Virus record (IMG/VR): IMGVR_UViG_2695420600_000008
Direction: 5' to 3' (one strand)
From: a virus
Taxonomy: Duplodnaviria; Heunggongvirae; Uroviricota; Caudoviricetes
DNA: 38,211 bases
The translations under genes were made by a program, and so were the position numbers. Shown in pieces: positions 18,890-34,060 of this stretch. The notes beneath the pieces are model-generated. The model saw only the letters and a program-made list of their open reading frames with translations. It was not told the origin of the DNA and searched no databases. The first letter of the stretch is position 1. Each line of letters begins with the position of its first letter.

Positions 18890-19690
18890 TTAACCGCGCT
18901 TCGCCTTCTGCGTCGCGGTGGTTTTTCGTGTTGCAGGCTTCCGCGTTGTCTTTTTACTTTCGCTGCTTTCGTCCTGCGCCTGCTGTGCGCTGGCGTCTTC
19001 TGGTGCGGCTGCGGAATCGGCTTTTTTCAGGGCGCGGGAAAGGGTTGCAATCTCGCGTTTCACACCTGCGTTCTGGTTCAGATGCATCGCTTCGCGCAGC
19101 AGCTTCAGTGATGAGGCCATGCTGTCCGCATCGCTCAGGCCACGGCGGGCAAAGGCGCACGCCTTGCATAATTTGGCGCGCACTTCGTCCGGCATATCCT
19201 GGTTGGCGACAATTTCCCAAAGTGTGTCCAGTGGTTCGATAAAGACGGACAAATCCGCGTCGGCATCCGTCCCGGCCTGCGTCAGTACCGGATTGCAGAT
19301 TTCTTCGGTCAGCACTGTGGCAGCAGTACGGCCAAAGTTATCCGGCATGATGAGGTTGTGACGGACCGCATACGCACCAATACGCAGCGCAAGCGGAAGA
19401 TCGCCGCAGTCAATCGCCCACACCATCAGCGTGGCAATCACTTCGTCCTGTTGCCCGCCGTCAGCCTCCAGCGTTCCCTCAATCCAGCCGGAAAAGTCCG
19501 GCAACAACGCTTTTTTGATGTCGGCTTTCGCGCTTCTGGCCTGTACGCCCTTAAGCCGGGCCTGTGCCAGACGCAGACGATACAGCACCTCTTCATGCGC
19601 GGTACGCGCGGCGTGGTCCACACCTTCATTCGCCCGGCCTGCGCGCTGTGCCATCACGTTCTGCCAGTGTTGCTGTGCAGGAGTAATCAT
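18890..19690 (-). CDS. M: terminase endonuclease (small) subunit gpM
   Basis: 266 aa; DMPDEVRAKL motif and basic C-terminal tail as in P2 gpM; synteny after N. Confidence 0.8.
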   Translation of the reverse strand: MITPAQQHWQNVMAQRAGRANEGVDHAARTAHEEVLYRLRLAQARLKGVQARSAKADIKKALLPDFSGWIEGTLEADGGQQDEVIATLMVWAIDCGDLPLALRIGAYAVRHNLIMPDNFGRTAATVLTEEICNPVLTQAGTDADADLSVFIEPLDTLWEIVANQDMPDEVRAKLCKACAFARRGLSDADSMASSLKLLREAMHLNQNAGVKREIATLSRALKKADSAAAPEDASAQQAQDESSESKKTTRKPATRKTTATQKAKRG

Positions 19691-21802: not shown

Positions 21803-23554
21803 ATGATTCAGGACGCTTTTGTGCGCCAGCGTGCGCGGCAACTTTACTGGCAGGGTTATCCGCCCGCAGAAATATCACGTCTGATGGGAATAAACCCGAA
21901 CACGATTTATGCGTGGAAAAAACGCGACCAGTGGGATGAAACGCCACCCGTGCAGCGTGTCACGCAGTCCATCGATGCGCGCCTCATCCAGCTTACTGAA
22001 AAACAGAATAAAACAGGTGGTGACTTTAAGGAAATAGACCTGCTGACCCGGCAGCTTAAAAAACTGCATGATGGCCAGCCGGATGCGACGGCCACAGGAA
22101 AGAAAGGCCGGGCGAAAAAACTCAAAAATCATTTCACGCCGGAACAGATTGCCGCACTGCGGGAAAAAATCATCAGCAGGCTGGAGTGGCATCAGCGGGG
22201 CTGGTTTGACTCCCTGACGCTTTGCAGGGAAGCCGGGATACGTAACAGGATGATCCTGAAATCCCGACAGATTGGGGCGACCTGGTATTTTGCACAGGAA
22301 GCACTGCTGATGGCGCTGCGTGACGATGTGGCACAACCTTACCAGCGTAACCAGATTTTTTTGTCTGCGTCGCGTCGTCAGGCGTTCCAGTTTAAAAGCA
22401 TTATTCAGAAGGCCGCGGCTGAAGTCGATGTGGAGCTGAAAGGGGGCGATAAAATCATCCTCTCCAACGGCGCAGAGATGCATTTTCTCGGCACTTCTGC
22501 TGCGACGGCGCAATCTTACACGGGCAATTTTTATTTTGATGAATTTTTCTGGGTCAGTCGCTTTGCTGAACTGCGCAAGGTGGCTGGCGCTATGGCAACC
22601 CTCAGCGGACTGCGGCGCACCTGCTTCTCCACGCCATCCACCGAAACGCACGAGGCATACGCCTACTGGAACGGCGACCGCTGGAACGAGAAAAAGGCCG
22701 CGCATAAACGCCAGCGTTTTTCTGTGGACTGGAAAACGCTGCATAACGGGCTTATCTGCCCTGACCGGACGTGGCGGCAAATTGTCACGCTGGAAGATGT
22801 GGTTAATCACGGCTGGAAACACACCGATATTGATGAAATTCGTGATGAAAACACCGAAGACGAGTTCCGCAATCTCTATATGTGTGAGTTTGTCCGCGAA
22901 GGGGAATCGGCATTTAACCTGAATATCCTGATTGGCTGCGGTGTTGACGGATACGACGACTGGAAAGACTGGAAACCCTTTGCCCCCCGCCCGATGGGGA
23001 ATCGTCCGGTATGGATTGGGTATGACGCAAACGGCAGCAGTGGTAACGGCGACAGCGGCGCTGTGTCCGTGGTGGTTCCTCCGGCTGTTCCTGGTGGTCG
23101 TTTCAGAACGGTGGAGACGCGACGCGTTCAGGGGCTGGAATTTGAAGAGCAGGCCAGAGTTATTGAAGAGTTCACGTATCGCTACAACGTGGAACACATC
23201 GGCATTGATGCGACGGGAGGGCACGGGGATGCCGTCTATCAGATAGTGAAACGGTTTTTTCCCGCCGCCATCCCTTACACCTTCACGCTGTCATCAAAAC
23301 GGTCGCTGGTACTGAAAATGCTGCAAATAATGCGTGCCGGGCGGTGGGAATACGATCGCGCCGAACGCGAGCTGGTTGCGGCCTTTAACGCCGTGCGTAA
23401 GGTGAAAACACCGGGCGGTTTTATCACTTACGAAACGGACCGCGCGAGGGGGATCAGCCACGGCGACCTTGCGTGGGCAACCATGCTTGCTGTCATTAAC
23501 GAACCGATTGGCGGCGAAGGAGAAAACGAGCGTTTCACGGTTATGGAGTTCTGA
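21803..23554 (+). CDS. P: terminase large subunit (ATPase) gpP
   Basis: 583 aa; divergent from O as in P2; N-terminal helix-turn-helix-like region and central ATPase region. Confidence 0.8.
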   Translation: MIQDAFVRQRARQLYWQGYPPAEISRLMGINPNTIYAWKKRDQWDETPPVQRVTQSIDARLIQLTEKQNKTGGDFKEIDLLTRQLKKLHDGQPDATATGKKGRAKKLKNHFTPEQIAALREKIISRLEWHQRGWFDSLTLCREAGIRNRMILKSRQIGATWYFAQEALLMALRDDVAQPYQRNQIFLSASRRQAFQFKSIIQKAAAEVDVELKGGDKIILSNGAEMHFLGTSAATAQSYTGNFYFDEFFWVSRFAELRKVAGAMATLSGLRRTCFSTPSTETHEAYAYWNGDRWNEKKAAHKRQRFSVDWKTLHNGLICPDRTWRQIVTLEDVVNHGWKHTDIDEIRDENTEDEFRNLYMCEFVREGESAFNLNILIGCGVDGYDDWKDWKPFAPRPMGNRPVWIGYDANGSSGNGDSGAVSVVVPPAVPGGRFRTVETRRVQGLEFEEQARVIEEFTYRYNVEHIGIDATGGHGDAVYQIVKRFFPAAIPYTFTLSSKRSLVLKMLQIMRAGRWEYDRAERELVAAFNAVRKVKTPGGFITYETDRARGISHGDLAWATMLAVINEPIGGEGENERFTVMEF

Positions 23555-24600
23555 TGAGCAGAAAAAATAAAAAAGTGCGCATGAGTTCACGCATTGATCT
23601 CGCTGATGCGCTCAGGAAAGAATCGTCGCTCAGTGCATTCACATTTGATGGTCCTTACCGCCTGACCGGGCATGACCTGCTGGACAATATGTACTGTGCT
23701 GATAACGGGCGGTGGTATGAAACCCCGGTGGACTGGTACGGTCTGGCAAGAGCTGCCCGGCAAACGTCCTGGCATCAGTCTGCGCTTTACTTTAAGCGCA
23801 ATGTATTGCTCGGCTGCTATATTCCGCACCCGCTGCTTTCCCGGCAGGATTTCTCGGCGCTGGCGCTGGACTGGTTTGTGTTCGGTAACGCATTCCTTGA
23901 GCTTCGGAGCAATATGCTCGGCGAACCGCTTAAATTACGGCACGCCCTGGCGAAATACATGCGACGCGGAAGCGATCTTGAATCATGGTGGTATGTGCAG
24001 GATGGCAAGGATGCGTTTCAGTTTCGTCCTGGCAAAGTGTGCCACCTGATGAATCCGGATATTAACCAGGAAATCTACGGCATGCCGGAATATCTTGGCG
24101 CATTACTCTCGGCCAGCCTTTCTCATTCGGCGGACATGTTCAGAAAACTGTACTACGACAACGGATCCCACGCCGGGTGCATCATCTACATCGGTGCAGC
24201 GCAGGTAAACCGCGAAAGCATGGACTCCCTGAAAGAAACGCTACAGGGGGCACGTGGTGGTGGTGCGTTTAAAAACGTGCTCATTCATGCGCCCAACGGG
24301 GGCAAAGAGGGGGTGCAAATTTTGCCGTTCCAGCAGATCACCGCAAAGGATGAGTTCATGAATGTTAAGGCGGCATCCCGTGATGATGTGCTGGCTGCGC
24401 ACCGCGTTCCGCCGCAACTGATGGGGGCGATGCCGGGCGAAAAAAGTGCGTTTGGTGATGTGGAGAAGGCCGCGCGGGTTTACGCAATTAACGAGCTGAT
24501 GCCCGTCATGGAGGCCATGAAGCACATCAATGACTGGCTTGGCGAAGAGGTGATCCGCTTTAACCCTTACGCACTGTTAGACACCCAGCCCACATCCTGA
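23554..24600 (+). CDS. Q: portal (capsid portal) protein gpQ
   Basis: 348 aa directly downstream of P with an ATGA overlap; P2 Q position and size. Confidence 0.8.
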   Translation: MSRKNKKVRMSSRIDLADALRKESSLSAFTFDGPYRLTGHDLLDNMYCADNGRWYETPVDWYGLARAARQTSWHQSALYFKRNVLLGCYIPHPLLSRQDFSALALDWFVFGNAFLELRSNMLGEPLKLRHALAKYMRRGSDLESWWYVQDGKDAFQFRPGKVCHLMNPDINQEIYGMPEYLGALLSASLSHSADMFRKLYYDNGSHAGCIIYIGAAQVNRESMDSLKETLQGARGGGAFKNVLIHAPNGGKEGVQILPFQQITAKDEFMNVKAASRDDVLAAHRVPPQLMGAMPGEKSAFGDVEKAARVYAINELMPVMEAMKHINDWLGEEVIRFNPYALLDTQPTS

Positions 24601-25091
24601 CGCGCTTCGCTTGTCTGCTGCTTCGCCGGGGCATAAAAAATTTATGCCCCGACTCTCCAGCTCCTGTATCAGTCAGATAATTTCACGACGCTTTCCTGCT
24701 GATTGCCATCATCGACAGTCAGACTCTTACGCAATCCCACCTCGTTGACTGCATATTCTCGCCGTCTCAGTGCGATTTTGACGGCCTTACCTTTCACCCC
24801 ATCAAATCAAAAGCCCTCACGTCTTTTTCACGCTCAGCGTGAGAAATACAGCCATTCTGTTGTATCTCTGCGACATCGTTCAGGGAATGCTATTTACCCC
24901 CTGAAACGCGGGCTGTTCCCCCGTCACCTGCGCGCAGAAAAAACGCGTTTTTTTGTGCATGCACGGATCCTTGACGGATCCAGCCGCCACGCGGGCCGGA
25001 AGGGCAAAAAGTCGTTCAAAAAAATTGTGCAAATTTGTGCACTATTGTGCATTTATAAAATCAACTAAAAAACACCTAGTGTGACTTACCT
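24601..25091. other. probable cos/packaging region (non-coding, repeat- and palindrome-rich)
   Basis: Non-coding gap between portal and the end of the early operon, where P2 cos lies; contains palindrome ggggcataaaaaatttatgcccc (24628..24650), palindrome aaaaaacgcgtttttt, direct repeat acggatcc x2 and phased TTGTGCA repeats. The exact P2 19-nt cos sequence was not found. Confidence 0.4.
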
Positions 25092-25277
25092 CTACCACTC
25101 GATCGGCACGTAGTCATTAAGTTCCGGAGACCAATTGCACTTTTCACATCTGTGTTTTCCATTCTGGCAGATACATAAACGATAACGGCCACAATGCGGG
25201 CACCCATTTTCACCATTATCATAATCACCGAGCGACCATTCCTGCATAAGCAGCTCTTCTTCATCATCATTTAGCAT
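25092..25277 (-). CDS. hypothetical zinc-ribbon protein (cysteine-rich, 61 aa)
   Basis: CPHCGRYRLCICQNGKHRCEKC cysteine cluster; acidic N-terminus; last gene of the early operon next to cos. Confidence 0.5.
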   Translation of the reverse strand: MLNDDEEELLMQEWSLGDYDNGENGCPHCGRYRLCICQNGKHRCEKCNWSPELNDYVPIEW

Positions 25278-25291
25278 TAATCCCCCTTGAG

Positions 25292-25531
25292 CTATTTACT
25301 CTTCTCGGCCCTCAAAATCATACGAGAACCATCATCCAGCTCCCAATTAATTTCACCGCCTTCTGCCATGACTAGATGCCAAACGAGTTGAGCGGCCTCG
25401 TTGGTTACATCGCGACCGCGATCATTTCCTACGCGGCGTTTTGTTCCGTCTCCTAAGTCACGCATTTTTGCCAATACGATGGTTTTTGATAGCGGTGAAA
25501 AACCAAGCTGTAGTCGTGCTGAATTACTCAC
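25292..25531 (-). CDS. hypothetical protein (79 aa)
   Basis: ORF in operon context, overlapping the upstream gene by 4 nt; no recognisable motif. Confidence 0.45.
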   Translation of the reverse strand: MSNSARLQLGFSPLSKTIVLAKMRDLGDGTKRRVGNDRGRDVTNEAAQLVWHLVMAEGGEINWELDDGSRMILRAEKSK

Positions 25532-26052
25532 TGGCTGCCCCCTTTGTACTGTGTTAACTCTTCCTGCTCCTGCATCATGCGATTGACCTGAACGCGTGTG
25601 CGTCGAACGGCAAAATTAAATTGAAACATGAGCCGGAACATTTCTGATGCTTCCGTGTGAGCATCACGGATAGGTGACAGGCGGTACAGTTCTGCCTCCG
25701 TAGCTTGTTGAATCAATGACAGATCAAATTGAAGTGCGGGTCTGGTACATTTTGCACATCTGGCAGCAAGCTCCGGTATTAGTCTCTTAACGAAGGTGTT
25801 TTGCACCGCTTTGTTGATTTGTGTCTGCATCCAAATCGCAAATTTCAGCGAACGCATAAGTTTGATAGCCTCGGGCAGCGGCAGATAGATCATGCTGGTA
25901 GATTTGGGTGGTTGGTGAACCATCTTCACGGATACGCGATTTCGCAGCGTTCGGAAAATCGTGTTCCCAACAACAGCTTCTACGGATACAGGACAGGGAG
26001 CCAGACCAGCCCGCAGTGCTTCTTTCATTAGCATGTATTCGTATTTTTTCAT
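25528..26052 (-). CDS. hypothetical protein (174 aa)
   Basis: ORF in operon context; no recognisable family by eye. Confidence 0.5.
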   Translation of the reverse strand: MKKYEYMLMKEALRAGLAPCPVSVEAVVGNTIFRTLRNRVSVKMVHQPPKSTSMIYLPLPEAIKLMRSLKFAIWMQTQINKAVQNTFVKRLIPELAARCAKCTRPALQFDLSLIQQATEAELYRLSPIRDAHTEASEMFRLMFQFNFAVRRTRVQVNRMMQEQEELTQYKGGSQ

Positions 26053-26112: not shown

Positions 26113-26424
26113 TCATTCAGGAAATAATGCCCGGATATTCCCTGCTATCTGACTGGTTATCTGTGCGGTTGGTACTGGCTGTGGCACGGGGCGTTCTGTC
26201 CTGGTTTGTGTCACCGATAACGCCTCATCGTCAGCCCATGCAGCCAGTCGGTAAGCCTCTGCTGGATTCATTTTCAGAAGTGCCAGCCCGGCCAGAAAAG
26301 CCACGCGTTGGCCGCTTTTGCGGGCTTCTGGTGTAAGGCTGCCCAGCCAGGCGCATGCTTCGCTTTCGTTCTTGACGGCCGCAGGCTTCAGATAGAAACT
26401 TATCCGTCTGGTTGGTGTCGTCAT
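26113..26424 (-). CDS. parR: ParR/StbB-like centromere-binding protein (putative)
   Basis: ORF 26113..26559; preferred start 26424, giving ~104 aa directly downstream of parM; resembles plasmid R1 ParR as I recall it (RRISFYLKP vs RRTIAFKLNP; C-terminal IRALFPE vs LRSLFPKE). Confidence 0.55.
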   Translation of the reverse strand: MTTPTRRISFYLKPAAVKNESEACAWLGSLTPEARKSGQRVAFLAGLALLKMNPAEAYRLAAWADDEALSVTQTRTERPVPQPVPTAQITSQIAGNIRALFPE

Positions 26425-26428
26425 TGGT

Positions 26429-27388
26429 TTACTCCTTGTCCATTGCGTACAGCCCATTAACCAGAGCAAACTGTGGCACCCCGTCCGCGATGAAAGTCGC
26501 ATTAACTCCGCAGGCTTCGCGGATAGCGGGTGCCACAATCTCCGCCCCTCCACCGACAACCATCACCCGCCCGTAACCCGAAAAACCCGCCAGCGCGCGG
26601 ATCACGCGTTGTTTCAGTGTTTCTTCCTTTTCACGAATAACCGCCATCAGGCTGGCGTAATGCGCGTCATTGTGGATGTGCTGGCGCAGCCAGGCTTCAT
26701 CATGGCGATGTTCGATAATGGTATTGGCGATGTGGTGACTGGTGCGCATACCGTTAGTGGCCATCACCGACAGTACGGCATCGGCCATCAGAGAAACGCC
26801 TACGTGTGGATCGCAAAACACCTGGCTGATACCTGCCAGTTGCCCCTGAACCTTTGCCACATCCAGCGTGGTTCCGCCCAAATCCACAATCAGCAGGGAT
26901 TCAAACGGACTCATGTCAGCCAGTGCCTTAAAGCCAGCCGGAATGGATTCAGGCATAACCCGCACGTTACGGATAGTGAATGCTTCGCCGTTCTGGTACT
27001 CCACCGGGCGCATAACGTTCGCTTTTTTGCGGTTGATGTTGGCCATGTCCGGCTGTGCGTTTGTGTCGAAATACTCGCTCAGTGGCAGGGTGACAACCAC
27101 ATCCACCTCCTGTGGCGTGATGCCTGATTTGACCAGCGCGTGATGAATGGCAATGACATTTACATCGCTGTACTGGTATTGCGTGTCGGTTGTCTGGACA
27201 AAGCGATCGCTGACCGGATCAAAACCATAGCGCACGCCATCAAGCATGTAGTTCGCGGGCTGCATGCCACCGAACGGCGCAGACCATTCCGACTTGAAGC
27301 TGTTCGGGCTGATGGCGTTGCGGCGTTCGCCGTTCTCAGTCCATGCCAGCTTGATGTTGGTGGAGCCGTCGTCGATACAAATTTTCAT
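26429..27388 (-). CDS. parM: ParM/StbA-like actin-type plasmid segregation ATPase
   Basis: 319 aa; MKICIDDGSTNIKLAW…ISPNSF…YSDVNVIAIHHAL…VMPESIPAG…LIVDLGGTTLDV…GVSL…VVGGGAEI strongly resembles R1 ParM including the actin-fold phosphate loops. Confidence 0.8.
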   Translation of the reverse strand: MKICIDDGSTNIKLAWTENGERRNAISPNSFKSEWSAPFGGMQPANYMLDGVRYGFDPVSDRFVQTTDTQYQYSDVNVIAIHHALVKSGITPQEVDVVVTLPLSEYFDTNAQPDMANINRKKANVMRPVEYQNGEAFTIRNVRVMPESIPAGFKALADMSPFESLLIVDLGGTTLDVAKVQGQLAGISQVFCDPHVGVSLMADAVLSVMATNGMRTSHHIANTIIEHRHDEAWLRQHIHNDAHYASLMAVIREKEETLKQRVIRALAGFSGYGRVMVVGGGAEIVAPAIREACGVNATFIADGVPQFALVNGLYAMDKE

Positions 27389-27415: not shown

Positions 27416-27531
27416 ATCGTTTACGGGATTCTGAAATCCCGTTTTTGCCTGTTTTGTGCGCGCTTCATATATCGCTGCGCGTTTTTTGCTCATTTACGGG
27501 ATTCGTGAGTCCCGTTTCTGTCTGTTTTTTG
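27416..27531 (+). repeat. two copies of a ~42-bp hairpin-containing direct repeat upstream of parM (candidate parC centromere/operator)
   Basis: Copy 1 hairpin acgggattctgaaatcccgt (27423..27442) then ttttgcctgttttgtg; copy 2 hairpin acgggattcgtgagtcccgt (27496..27515) then ttctgtctgttttttg; copy 2 lies in the 3' end of the A coding region. Confidence 0.5.
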
Positions 27532-30287
27532 TTTCCACTGGTCAGGCCACCCCGCAGCAGGTCTGCTTTGCGGCGGGCGCGTTCAGTGGTTTCACTGATT
27601 CTCTGTGCGTGCTCTGCGTCGCGGATGGCGCGCAGCATGTCAGAAAGCACGGTAACGGGTGTTTTCATGGTGTTCTGGTCCTGCTGAAGTGTGGATGCCA
27701 GGCGTGCGGCGGCTTCAGGGTCTGATGCCCCCAGCTGTGTCAGATAGCTGGCGACCGGGTTATGGCGGATCTCCGTGCTGCTTACGCCATGATTACGGCT
27801 CAGGCGCTGCCAGAGCTGCGTGATTCGGCTGTCCGGGCGGGTATCCGGTTTGCGTACAATTTCAAATCCCTGCGGTGCAATGATGCTGCCGTCAACGTAC
27901 AGACTGCCGCCCCGTAACAGGTGCTGCATCTGTTGTTCACCGATATGCAGGCCGAGAGATTCAGCAGACTCCCGCCATTCTTTAGCGAGTAATTCGTGGT
28001 TATCAGGCAAAGGCCGCTGCTGTTTGCGGCTCTGTGTCCAGCTCTGCATTTCATCACTGCTGTTTTTTGCCTGTTTGTCACGAAGCGAACGCATCAGCGC
28101 CCGGCGTTCGTGCCGTTTCAGTGAGCGCATCCATTCATCCACATCAACGCCGTCAGGGAGCTGCGGCCACGGTGCTGGCCGTTCTTCCGGCTGTTCTGTC
28201 CCGTTGTTGTCCGTTTCCTGTACACGGGGACAGTTATTGCCACGAGTCCAAGGGGCGGCAGGGCCGCCCTGAAGGTCAAAACCATTTTCGCGGGCGCTGT
28301 CTTCCGCTTCCGGTTTGCGTCTTACCAGCTTCCAGTTATCCGGATGCGTGCACACACGGGAGGATTCCCCGATGAGTGGTGACCAGATCCCGTAAATCTG
28401 TACGCTCTGTTCGCCGTAATCGTTCAGCTCATCGGCGAGGTCGTAGGCGGTGCGAATCAGGTAGTCTTTGCGTGGAACAAGTACGCCGCCCTGTTTCTCT
28501 ATGTAGGTGGCAAAACATCCGGCATCAGCGGCGGCAAGAACCGCATCCATTGCGTCATCCTTCAGCCGTTGCGGGCCTTCCGGGTTGCGTGCCATCTGGC
28601 TGGCAAGGCGGCGCAGTTCACGCCATACCTGGCGGGAGGGGATGCCAAAGAACTGGAACTGGCGGACCCGGTGAAGGCGCGCCCAGCCGATGGCGCGTTC
28701 CACGCTCTCGGCCATTGATTTTCCGGTTTCGTGGTCAACGCGTGGCTTGCCCGTTTTCGGGTCGATGCCATCCACGGCGCGGCTGTCCAGGTTTTTCCCG
28801 ATGTAGGTGGCGATGTAGCTGGTTGGCGTGCCTTTTGAGCCGTCTACATACTCCGCCTTAAAGCGCGGAGTTATGTCATCGCCCAGCTCGTGACGATCTT
28901 CCTGAATGGCAATATCGCGGGTGTGGGACACAATGGTGTCGATTTCTTCCGGATGAGCAAAGACCATCATATGCCAGTGCACGGTGCCGTCATGGTGAGG
29001 CTCCGCCGTGCGGATGCCATACCAGCGCAGGCCGTCGCGGTTCAGTTTTTTGCGGACCGTCGCAAAAAACGTGTTAACCAGGTAATCGCTGGAGTCGCGC
29101 ATTGTGGCCCCGTTCCATTTGGGATTCGGATGACCGTTCTCCGTTGTGGCGTGGTATTTTGACGGGCAGGTGACAGTCAGAAACACCGCTTTGTCGCCAC
29201 GGGCTTCGGCCAGAAGTTCCAGCCCCTTCATGGTGGCCATCATTTCTGCCTTACGGTGAACCGGGTTACTTACTCCCGCGTAATACACCGTCTCGAGATC
29301 AATCGTGAACCCGTCTTCATTTTCCAGCATGAAACTTTTCAGGAAATCGCGTGTTTTCTCGCGCTGTGCGCGAAACTCGCTTAACGCGTCCTGGCTCAGA
29401 TAGGGCGATGTTTTTCTGGAAACCAGACAGGCGGCGCGAAGTTGTTCTTCTCTCCACTCGCAACGTAACAGCCACAGTTTGCGTTTCCACCATTCCGCAC
29501 AGGTCAGGCGAAGGATTGCGCCCGGCAGCAGTTCTGTGTCCGGTTCGTGCCTCCGGTCTTTGTCTGTTGTCAGTGCGTCATAATGCGGAGGCATGGCGTG
29601 TAAGTGTAACGCCATGCGGGCCAGCATCTGATACGCCTTCAGCGTTACATCCATGGTCAGCTCGCCATCAGTCGCGCCAAAACCATCGCAGAGTTTTTCG
29701 AAGGTGCTGCTGAACATCGCCGCCGTCATGGTGGCCAGCGTCTGTATCTGGTGTTTGTTGAGTTGCGGCAGGTAAAGCAAATCGTCCAGGCGTTCACGTC
29801 CGGCAAGGGAGCGATAACCCGGTGTCAGCCAGTGTCCGTCAGTGCGATCCAGACGTTCGAATATTTTGCGCAGGGTTCCGCGTGCATAGCGTTCCGCCTG
29901 CCAGCTCTTTTTGCCTTTCCGGCGATCGGCTTCCTGTTTTTTGCGCAGGAAGGAGAGGTGGCGAATAAGCGGATCGCGCAGATAGGACGGCAGCAGGCGC
30001 AGCGAGGCCATGGCTTCATCCACCGCGCCGCGTGCCTGTTTTCTGGCGTCTCCTGCCAGTGTGATGGTTTTGTCCTGTTTTTCCTGTGCGTCCAGGCTTT
30101 TATTAATCAGGTTGCCCAGTGGCGTGGCGGAGAACGCCGCATCAGCCATTTCCTGGCGGCGCTCGTTCTCTGCCCGGTGGGCATCCAGCCAGGAGGAAAG
30201 CGCGGATTCAGGAGCGGGGATCCCCGTTCCTTCACGCCCCACTGCGTGGCGCGGTTGTTGCCAGTCCCTGATGTACTCTGCCGTCAT
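27465..30287 (-). CDS. A: replication initiation endonuclease gpA (rolling-circle initiator)
   Basis: 940-aa ORF; central region (…FLTVTCPSKYH…WYGIRTAEPHHDGTVHWHMMVF…YIATYIGKNLD…) resembles the P2/186 GPA family; long C-terminal extension relative to my memory of P2 A (~760 aa). Confidence 0.8.
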   Translation of the reverse strand: MTAEYIRDWQQPRHAVGREGTGIPAPESALSSWLDAHRAENERRQEMADAAFSATPLGNLINKSLDAQEKQDKTITLAGDARKQARGAVDEAMASLRLLPSYLRDPLIRHLSFLRKKQEADRRKGKKSWQAERYARGTLRKIFERLDRTDGHWLTPGYRSLAGRERLDDLLYLPQLNKHQIQTLATMTAAMFSSTFEKLCDGFGATDGELTMDVTLKAYQMLARMALHLHAMPPHYDALTTDKDRRHEPDTELLPGAILRLTCAEWWKRKLWLLRCEWREEQLRAACLVSRKTSPYLSQDALSEFRAQREKTRDFLKSFMLENEDGFTIDLETVYYAGVSNPVHRKAEMMATMKGLELLAEARGDKAVFLTVTCPSKYHATTENGHPNPKWNGATMRDSSDYLVNTFFATVRKKLNRDGLRWYGIRTAEPHHDGTVHWHMMVFAHPEEIDTIVSHTRDIAIQEDRHELGDDITPRFKAEYVDGSKGTPTSYIATYIGKNLDSRAVDGIDPKTGKPRVDHETGKSMAESVERAIGWARLHRVRQFQFFGIPSRQVWRELRRLASQMARNPEGPQRLKDDAMDAVLAAADAGCFATYIEKQGGVLVPRKDYLIRTAYDLADELNDYGEQSVQIYGIWSPLIGESSRVCTHPDNWKLVRRKPEAEDSARENGFDLQGGPAAPWTRGNNCPRVQETDNNGTEQPEERPAPWPQLPDGVDVDEWMRSLKRHERRALMRSLRDKQAKNSSDEMQSWTQSRKQQRPLPDNHELLAKEWRESAESLGLHIGEQQMQHLLRGGSLYVDGSIIAPQGFEIVRKPDTRPDSRITQLWQRLSRNHGVSSTEIRHNPVASYLTQLGASDPEAAARLASTLQQDQNTMKTPVTVLSDMLRAIRDAEHAQRISETTERARRKADLLRGGLTSGNKKQTETGLTNPVNEQKTRSDI

Positions 30288-33082: not shown

Positions 33083-34060
33083 ATGAGCATAAAATCAATT
33101 CCGGGAGGGTATCTTCTTGACATGCGTCCTGAGGGGCGTAAAGGCAAACGCATTCGCAAAAAATTTAAAACGAAATCGGATGCAGTTTTATATGAGCGGT
33201 GGGTGCTGGCGCAACAGCATAACAATGAGTGGAAAGGAAACTCCATTGATCGCCGTCCGCTGTCAGTGCTTATTGACTTGTGGTGGAAATACCACGGCCA
33301 GCTAATGAAGTCAGGGCATAACACGCGCCTTAAATTGCTGCGCTTGAGTGAGGCAATGGATGACCCGTGCGTGCATAAACTTAATACAACGATGCTCACC
33401 GAGCTACGTGTGTCCAGGATAGAGCAGGGGATACAGCCCAGCACCATAAATCGAGAGATTGGGGCGTTAAGCGCGATGTTTACCGCACTCATCTCATCCG
33501 GCCATTTTCTTAACGATAACCCCGTTCAAGGCCTTAAAGGAATGAAGGTTAACGAGCGTGAAATGGGATATCTGAGTAAGTCTGAATGTGTTCAGTTGCT
33601 GGATGCACTGGCTGAAAATCCCGATGAACGGCTGGCCGTCGAAATCCTTCTGTCGACCGGGGCGCGATGGGGCGAGGTAGCGGCACTGGAGCAGCGCCGT
33701 GTTCTTCATTGTCGAATCACTTTTTCAAAAACGAAGAACAGCAAAAACCGTACCGTTCCTATTTCTGAAAGCCTGTTTGAAAAGATCAAAAAACGGGGCG
33801 GGAAACTGGTGTTTCCGACGCTGGATTATTCATTGGTTCGCGATGTCATCAAAACGGTCGCACCTGATGTTCCTGACGGCCAGGCTGTTCATGCGCTGCG
33901 CCACACCTTCGCCAGTCATTTCATGATGAACGGCGGCAATATTCTGACGCTCCAGAAAATTCTGGGGCACGCAAAGATTCAGACAACGATGATTTATGCC
34001 CATCTTGCGCCGGATTACTTGCAGGATGCGGTGAGGTTTAATCCCTTGGGAGGAATGTAA
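33083..34060 (+). CDS. int: P2-type integrase (tyrosine recombinase)
   Basis: ORF 32933..34060; preferred start 33083 (MSIKSIPGGYLLDMRPEGRKGKRIRKKF…), ~325 aa; C-terminal catalytic motifs LSTGARWGE, HALRHTFASHFMMNGG.ILTLQKILGH and MIYAHLAPDYLQDA (catalytic Tyr) match P2 Int. Confidence 0.9.
   Translation: MSIKSIPGGYLLDMRPEGRKGKRIRKKFKTKSDAVLYERWVLAQQHNNEWKGNSIDRRPLSVLIDLWWKYHGQLMKSGHNTRLKLLRLSEAMDDPCVHKLNTTMLTELRVSRIEQGIQPSTINREIGALSAMFTALISSGHFLNDNPVQGLKGMKVNEREMGYLSKSECVQLLDALAENPDERLAVEILLSTGARWGEVAALEQRRVLHCRITFSKTKNSKNRTVPISESLFEKIKKRGGKLVFPTLDYSLVRDVIKTVAPDVPDGQAVHALRHTFASHFMMNGGNILTLQKILGHAKIQTTMIYAHLAPDYLQDAVRFNPLGGM

Follow-up and report, generated by a model that had tools for sequence, protein, structure and literature searches.

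Four TGCA boxes as putative terminase recognition sites in the unannotated cos of a P88-like prophage

Our analysis of a 38,211-nucleotide stretch of DNA (the window) suggests that the TTGTGCA copies lying beside its portal gene are four TGCA boxes of a prophage cos, putative sites of terminase recognition and assembly, a reading to which, judging from sequence, we give a probability of about 0.75. The feature itself is ordinary and explained: it belongs to the P2-family cos sites, has not hitherto been annotated, and combines boxes of the GTGCA type with a diverged core. The initial annotation held that the region was cos, and the genomic context, a probable core homologue and matching box offsets bear this out. 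Its proposal that the repeats take part in packaging is also supported, in that the packaging signal includes these boxes as a conserved component, found at the offsets of the family and kept by satellites that share nothing else with the phages.

The window is a P88-like (Peduoviridae), P2-like E. coli prophage, 94–98% identical to its nearest records, P88, phiSM, Chuche and 500465-2 (P88-like; Xuanwuvirus and Gemsvirus). Its map is reversed relative to P2 and runs from terminase P through portal Q, the cos region, variable cargo and ParM/StbB to replication gene A, with homologues of gpM, N, O, P and Q encoded, the capsid N and scaffold O among them. The cos module spans ~24906–25051, between Q and the cargo and gpA side, a layout shared with the P2 and 186 records. 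Searching by sequence, we found no solved homologue of the gpM-like or gpP-like terminase subunit. Many relatives with the same cos are without the StbB/ParM module. The features of the window discussed here are the following:

18890–19690, minus strand: gpM-like small terminase subunit (Pfam Phage_term_smal, E = 1.3e-36), candidate reader of the boxes
21803–23554, plus strand: gpP-like large terminase, an N-terminal HTH (Terminase_5) followed by ATPase and nuclease (Pfam Terminase_5, Terminase_6N, Terminase_6C)
23554–24600, plus strand: gpQ-like portal (Pfam Phage_portal), at a fixed distance from the cos module
24912–24930, minus strand: probable homologue of the P2-family cos core (19-nt cohesive-end segment), reading CAGGTGACGGGGGAACAGC; the P2 segment is GGCGAGGCGGGGAAAGCAC
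24931–24955, no strand: 25-nt spacer from core to box 1, holding the palindrome AAAAAACGCGTTTTTT (24938–24953) and a conserved T-run (24948–24954)
24953–24959, plus strand: box 1, TTGTGCA, with its TGCA at +26 from the core; counterpart of TTAATGCA in P2, 186 and P4
24960–25016, no strand: middle segment, with a GGATCC pair (24965–24981) and the G-rich box GGGCCGGAAGGGCAAAAAG (24992–25010)
25017–25024, plus strand: A-tract CAAAAAAA, directly before the triplet
25025–25051, plus strand: boxes 2, 3 and 4, three TTGTGCA at 10-bp spacing, with TGCA at +98, +108 and +118
25052–26052, minus strand: start of the variable cargo hotspot, with a 64-aa ORF, a DUF7446 ORF (79 aa) and a 174-aa ORF, all within 25076–26052
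26113–27388, minus strand: actin-type partition module of StbB and ParM (StbA), with the cargo on one side and gpA on the other
27465–30287: gpA-like replication gene

The four TTGTGCA copies are present on the plus strand as initially annotated (24953–24959, 25025–25031, 25035–25041 and 25045–25051), all in direct orientation, and the lone copy precedes the first of the triplet by 72 bp, or ~7 helical turns. While the heptamer is not enriched across the window (9 copies vs 10.7 expected), only ~2e-8 clusters of three at exact 10-bp spacing are expected for a sequence of this size, so the triplet is not a product of chance. That the repeats are real is argued more strongly by their conservation than by this spacing statistic. 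The palindromes AAAAAACGCGTTTTTT (24938–24953) and GTGCATGCAC (24955–24964) are likewise present, as are two copies of ACGGATCC (24963–24970 and 24974–24981), the start first given for that repeat being one base off. The roles suggested for these three elements did not stand up to comparison. GTGCATGCAC reflects a C/T polymorphism in this lineage, GTGCACGCAC being the form in most relatives. The restriction of AAAAAACGCGTTTTTT and the second ACGGATCC to the P88-like clade speaks against their having a general role; outside this clade AAAAAACGCGTTTTTT is absent, and within it AAAAAACGCGTTTTTT is itself polymorphic. At the positions of these two elements other clades carry unrelated sequence of equal length. 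What is conserved across clades is the core, the length of the 25-nt spacer, the T-run with box 1, the A-tract with boxes 2–4 and, in part, the G-rich box. The spacer measures exactly 25 nt in P2, 186, P4, phiRSA1, L122, L332, L044 and the satellite compared with L044; GATCC and GGGCGGAAAGGGCA of the partly conserved middle segment recur in enterobacterial clades, and the A-tract persists in different genera and also in satellites. Folded as single-stranded DNA, the module is unremarkable (z = -1.29).

The initial annotation had been unable to match the P2 cos end. A probable, diverged homologue lies at 24912–24930, just left of the features that had been noted. The key to locating it was L332, a distant relative (portal 53% identical) in which CTGCTCCCCCGCCTCGCC, downstream of the portal gene, is an evident relative of the P2 19-mer in reverse complement; the 19-nt registers compared are ACTGCTCCCCCGCCTCGCC in L332 and GCTGTTCCCCCGTCACCTG in the window (24912–24930). 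P2, 186 and P4 have 19-nt 5′ cohesive ends. The window core is identical to the cores of P2 and 186 at only 10 of 19 positions, and its ends are predicted from sequence. The cores of L332 (12/19 vs the window, 13/19 vs P2) and L122 (15/19 vs P2) are intermediate in sequence between the window and P2. Identity alone is unconvincing, and we propose this register on the strength of the matching TGCA offsets together with the 25-nt spacer; the nicks would be placed at this core. The core ranks among the best-conserved segments of the region and is common to satellites.

Once a register with identical TGCA offsets was available, three other positions considered for the cohesive end were set aside: 24937–24955, beside GCGCGCA and chosen by analogy with the TGCGCGC adjoining the P2 core; 24973–24991, where the 9-mer CCGCCACGC is common to 186; and 24988–25006, where the plus strand resembles the P2 19-mer and LR595891 ends. 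This record (LR595891.1 / NC_049391.1, Xuanwuvirus P884B11) is the sole linear record ending in this region and starts elsewhere than the proposed core. Its nucleotide 1 corresponds to the window junction 25006|25007, inside the module and 76 bp from the core homologue, and its linearization puts boxes 2–4 at the record end and the core with box 1 at the record start. P2-like records of the same study begin at P2 nucleotide 1 or 20, and the authors' methods state that contig-end repeats were removed and nucleotide 1 was chosen relative to reference genomes. As this start is thus the authors' choice, it says little in either direction. Among IMG/VR contigs, what looked like physical ends close to the repeats proved to be storage cuts or assembly breaks, and our search for mapped physical DNA ends of any P88-like phage found none. 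In the contig L267 (IMGVR_UViG_2681813261_000011), an IS1 terminal repeat (GGTAATGACTCCAACTTATTGATAGTG...) directly follows CCCCCGTCACCTG, ~340 nt past the portal stop. This junction coincides with the cargo-side edge of the proposed cos core, and the prophage is probably not packageable.

The register places the boxes of the window in line with those of distant lineages. Counted from the cargo-side end of the core, with sequences registered on the core and ungapped, the offsets are:

Window, TGCA: +26, +30, +98, +108, +118
P2, TGCA: +26, +98, +108, +120
186, TGCA: +26, +32, +98, +108, +117/121
P4, TGCA: +26, +32, +72, +98, +108, +121
L122 (Arsenophonus locus), TGCA: +26, +32, +98, +108, +118, +128
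L044 (Pantoea prophage) and satellite, TGCA: +26, +98, +108, +118
L332: TGCA at +26, +34, +118; TGCG at +98; GGCA at +108
phiRSA1 (Ralstonia), TGCA: +26, +32, +97, +107, +126
phiCTX (Pseudomonas), TGC(A/G): +25, +34, +80, +96, +106

In the window a T-run leads into TGCA (TTTTTTTGTGCA), and this TGCA falls at +26 here and in the compared lineages (+25 in phiCTX). Between the boxes (+30 to +97) identity to P2 is 0.19, the random level, and the DNA is not alignable; the probability of three shared offsets is ~1e-4 under random placement. Because the offsets from the core match, we regard the copy at 24953 as the counterpart of TTAATGCA and the phased triplet as the counterpart of the distal TGCA triplet of P2, 186 and P4. 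Alignment with the cos regions of related phages, which had been named as a check on the repeats, thus finds the boxes at the same core offsets as the TGCA of P2, 186, P4 and phiRSA1, the first three being mutually related, such that their agreement does not amount to three independent observations. In the P2 record (33449–33486, L010) the distal triplet sits a short way upstream of the old/tin mRNA starts, which are annotated at 33424/33426 on the opposite strand, and the P2 boxes may overlap the old/tin promoter region.

Conservation among close relatives follows the same outline. Relatives were gathered via the portal protein, which makes their choice independent of the repeats, and yielded 60 distinct sequences. 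The triplet stands at the same offset in 67 of 68 anchor-carrying contigs, the exception ending at a contig edge. Of the remaining portal-collected contigs, one carries an IS1 end inserted at the core, and the others are truncated or differ slightly in the anchor. Across the 60 relatives, boxes 2 and 3 show no variable column (0/7 each), box 1 shows one (1/7) and box 4 two (2/7); the core (3/19) and the A-tract (2/8) vary at low frequency. The G-rich middle box (24984–25016) varies in 24 of 33 columns and the intergenic DNA from Q to the core in 192 of 279, and to the right of 25051 no alignment is possible. In P88, phiSM, Chuche and 500465-2, homology to the window extends from the portal gene to 25051, the end of box 4, and then stops. 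The same break after box 4 occurs in 120 viral contigs, and at least 17 unrelated cargo flanks begin directly after this box. In most of the 120 contigs the portal gene ends ~370–427 nt left of the triplet (~1,050 nt in a subset with inserted DNA), and the distance from the triplet to ParM or gpA ranges from ~0.4 to >4 kb. The module is found at 1,250 places in 1,101 of 5,426 complete E. coli genomes (~20%), most sampled matches ending at 25051.

A cos-proximal hotspot of variable, often antiviral, cargo has been described in P2-like phages (PMC9122126). In the window, the 174-aa cargo protein has no family match in Pfam, and a PADLOC search of the three cargo ORFs gave no match. Read from the DNA, the reverse strand of the 64-aa ORF suggests paired cysteines. 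The identical cargo trio is found in the IMG/VR contigs L146 and L165, and the 64-aa ORF alone adjoins the boxes in the more distant phages L136 and L138.

P4-like satellites without portal or terminase have only this ~145-bp module in common with the phages, similarity starting near the core (~24906) and ending at box 4; they were found by a triplet search, so that the triplet is there by construction, unlike the core, box 1 and the identical spacings that they also share. The metagenome contig QAKE01000006.1 (L092 + L123) closes through a 507-bp terminal overlap into a 12,207-bp circle that encodes an integrase, a P4-alpha-like primase, an epsilon-type derepression protein, Ash, AlpA and a P2-family major capsid protein, and at least four further loci (L043, L027, L073 and L247) are similar to it. 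Each satellite group carries the core and the box flavour of its own helper group. P2 and P4 share a core cos signal and have only cos in common (PMC9122126). A P2-family major capsid gene of the satellite's own (PF05125, 360–470 aa) lies beside cos in L092 + L123, L073 (4118–5524), L247 (1198–2610) and L043, and these satellites may constitute a capsid-encoding branch of the P4-like satellites.

The known cos systems offer likenesses as well as differences. A passage in PMC5694545 attributes a 55-bp conserved core of the P2, 186 and P4 cos to Ziermann and Calendar (1990) and mapped cohesive ends of phiRSA1 to Fujiwara (2008). Like these three enterobacterial elements, the window has a probably homologous G/C-rich core beside portal Q, boxes that face away from Q (towards the cargo hotspot in the case of the phages), a 25-nt spacer ending in a T-run with TGCA at +26, a distal TGCA triplet at +98, +108 and ~+118–121, and a module common to phage and satellite. 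Unlike them, it has TTGTGCA in place of (A/T)ATGCA boxes and a triplet regularly spaced at 10 + 10 after an A-tract, where P2, 186 and P4 have spacings of 10 and then 9–13; the dyad within the 25-nt spacer also differs. The same box layout recurs in phiRSA1 and phiCTX, well beyond enterobacterial hosts, but these phages have other hosts, offsets shifted by 1–2 nt and DNA that is not alignable outside the core, and phiCTX differs further in its 21-nt end and its CTGCR motif. Around cos, the record of phiCTX carries annotations for an IHF site and for repeats R3–R6. In lambda, cosB comprises the gpNu1 sites R3, R2 and R1 and the IHF site I1, the sites being 16 bp long and of mixed orientation. 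They are believed to give the small terminase subunit its anchorage and to bring the nuclease into position, and in lambda the end on their side is packaged first. By analogy, the window may be likened to cosB in having short repeated sites beside a nicking site, proximal and distal, with bendable DNA between them; it differs in that neither sequence nor protein is homologous and IHF involvement is not indicated.

We hypothesize that the phage terminase reads the boxes, most plausibly as a gpM-like oligomer, possibly helped by the N-terminal HTH of the gpP-like subunit. Because the direct repeats lie roughly on one helix face, a single multimer could occupy the proximal box and the distal triplet at once, with the DNA between them bent or wrapped with the aid of the A-tract. 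The nuclease would thereby be placed on the core 26 bp away, producing the staggered nicks from which packaging starts, and satellites would be packaged through possession of the same module. The exact nick positions, the binding protein and the looping geometry of this scheme are inferred.

The alternative that fares best, and that we consider improbable, leaves the boxes as packaging elements but has them read by a host architectural protein (IHF, Fis or similar) or acting as curved DNA, with the terminase contacting the core region only. Curved DNA typically shows features like the A-tract and the phased A/T runs seen here (AAAAAAATTGTGCAAATTTGTGCACTATTGTGCA), lambda cosB uses IHF and, as noted, an IHF site is annotated near the phiCTX cos. 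What is conserved across lineages, however, is the TGCA tetranucleotide at fixed offsets and not the A/T phasing, and by direct reading the closest IHF-like match (ATCAA-N5-TTG) is one base off in spacing. The flavour of the boxes, moreover, differs by helper clade, being ATGCA in P2, 186 and P4 and GTGCA here, and satellites follow their helper, a pattern more readily explained by a reader that the phage encodes than by a host protein common to the clades.

Clearly less probable still is a minus-strand intrinsic terminator made up of the A-tract and boxes 2 and 3 (GTGCACAAATTTGCAC and then a T-run), which would shield cos from transcription of the cargo or early operon. A terminator scan does report a site on the minus strand at 25042–25027, and the cargo here, like the integrase in some satellites, is transcribed towards it. 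The hairpin, however, has 5 pairs only, and the segment (-6.1 kcal/mol, z = -0.54 vs shuffles) is folded at least as well by 64 of 200 shuffles. P2, 186, P4 and phiRSA1 keep the TGCA offsets without an adjacent T-run, 186 has a separate proper terminator, t95b, upstream, and neither box 1 nor box 4 is accounted for by a terminator.

Direct repeats spaced by 10 bp beside genes also resemble operator arrays, and the P2 triplet lies close to the old/tin transcript start; that the repeats are operators or a promoter for the adjacent cargo genes or, as the initial annotation also offered, for the end of the early operon is in our view very unlikely. A promoter scan reported no promoter-like site overlapping the repeats on either strand, and the boxes stay fixed whatever cargo adjoins them, this cargo differing in at least 17 ways and lying in either orientation. 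The distance of the boxes is fixed to the cos core and the portal gene and not to any cargo-side gene, and satellites keep them beside quite different genes. Least credible of all is a centromere (parC-like iterons) of the ParM/StbB module 1–2 kb away: ParM (StbA) and StbB are encoded in the window (26113–27388), and a search beside parM/stbB found no iterons there, but in many phages that carry the identical triplet ParM is missing from the surrounding 5–7 kb and gpA is only distantly related, ParM is likewise lacking in the satellites and in P2, 186 and P4, whose boxes are homologous, and the distance from boxes to parM varies from 431 to >4,000 nt.

The reading of the boxes as a terminase-recognized part of cos matters in that how P2-type terminases recognize DNA is still poorly defined, and we found no binding-site map. 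The family and its conserved core are already known; the offset rule that holds across the family offers a useful lead that can be tested, giving a concrete layout of core, proximal box and distal triplet at fixed offsets from E. coli to Ralstonia phages. The distal triplet and the offsets are not annotated in the P2, 186 or P4 records, and our literature search, which did not extend to Ziermann and Calendar (1990), returned no description of TGCA boxes or of a P88 cos. A speculative extension, which we presently lean against, is that four TGCA boxes at fixed offsets constitute a Peduoviridae-wide terminase recognition code in which the GTGCA flavour and diverged core mark a separate packaging-specificity group. 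If so, P88-like phages and their own capsid-encoding P4-like satellites would form one group, insulated from cross-packaging with P2 and P4. At a practical level, the layout locates the unannotated cos of P88-like prophages, and could serve to set the correct nucleotide 1 of their records, to build cos plasmids or transducing particles for this phage group, to forecast helper–satellite packaging and to define the exact inner edge of the cos-proximal defence hotspot.

Outside Enterobacterales, a pattern scan of genome contigs returned tandem 10-bp arrays containing TTGTGCA (L012–L131) in Bryobacteraceae (several per genome), Akkermansia, Bacteroidota, Verrucomicrobiales and other MAGs; these matches are mostly from other phyla and unrelated to the cos locus. 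Lastly, L062 (NZ_JBQPOM010000071.1, labelled Vagococcus sp.) and QAKE01000006.1 (labelled a Bacillota MAG) carry enterobacterial P88-like prophage or satellite sequence, and their Firmicutes labels look like contamination or mis-binning.
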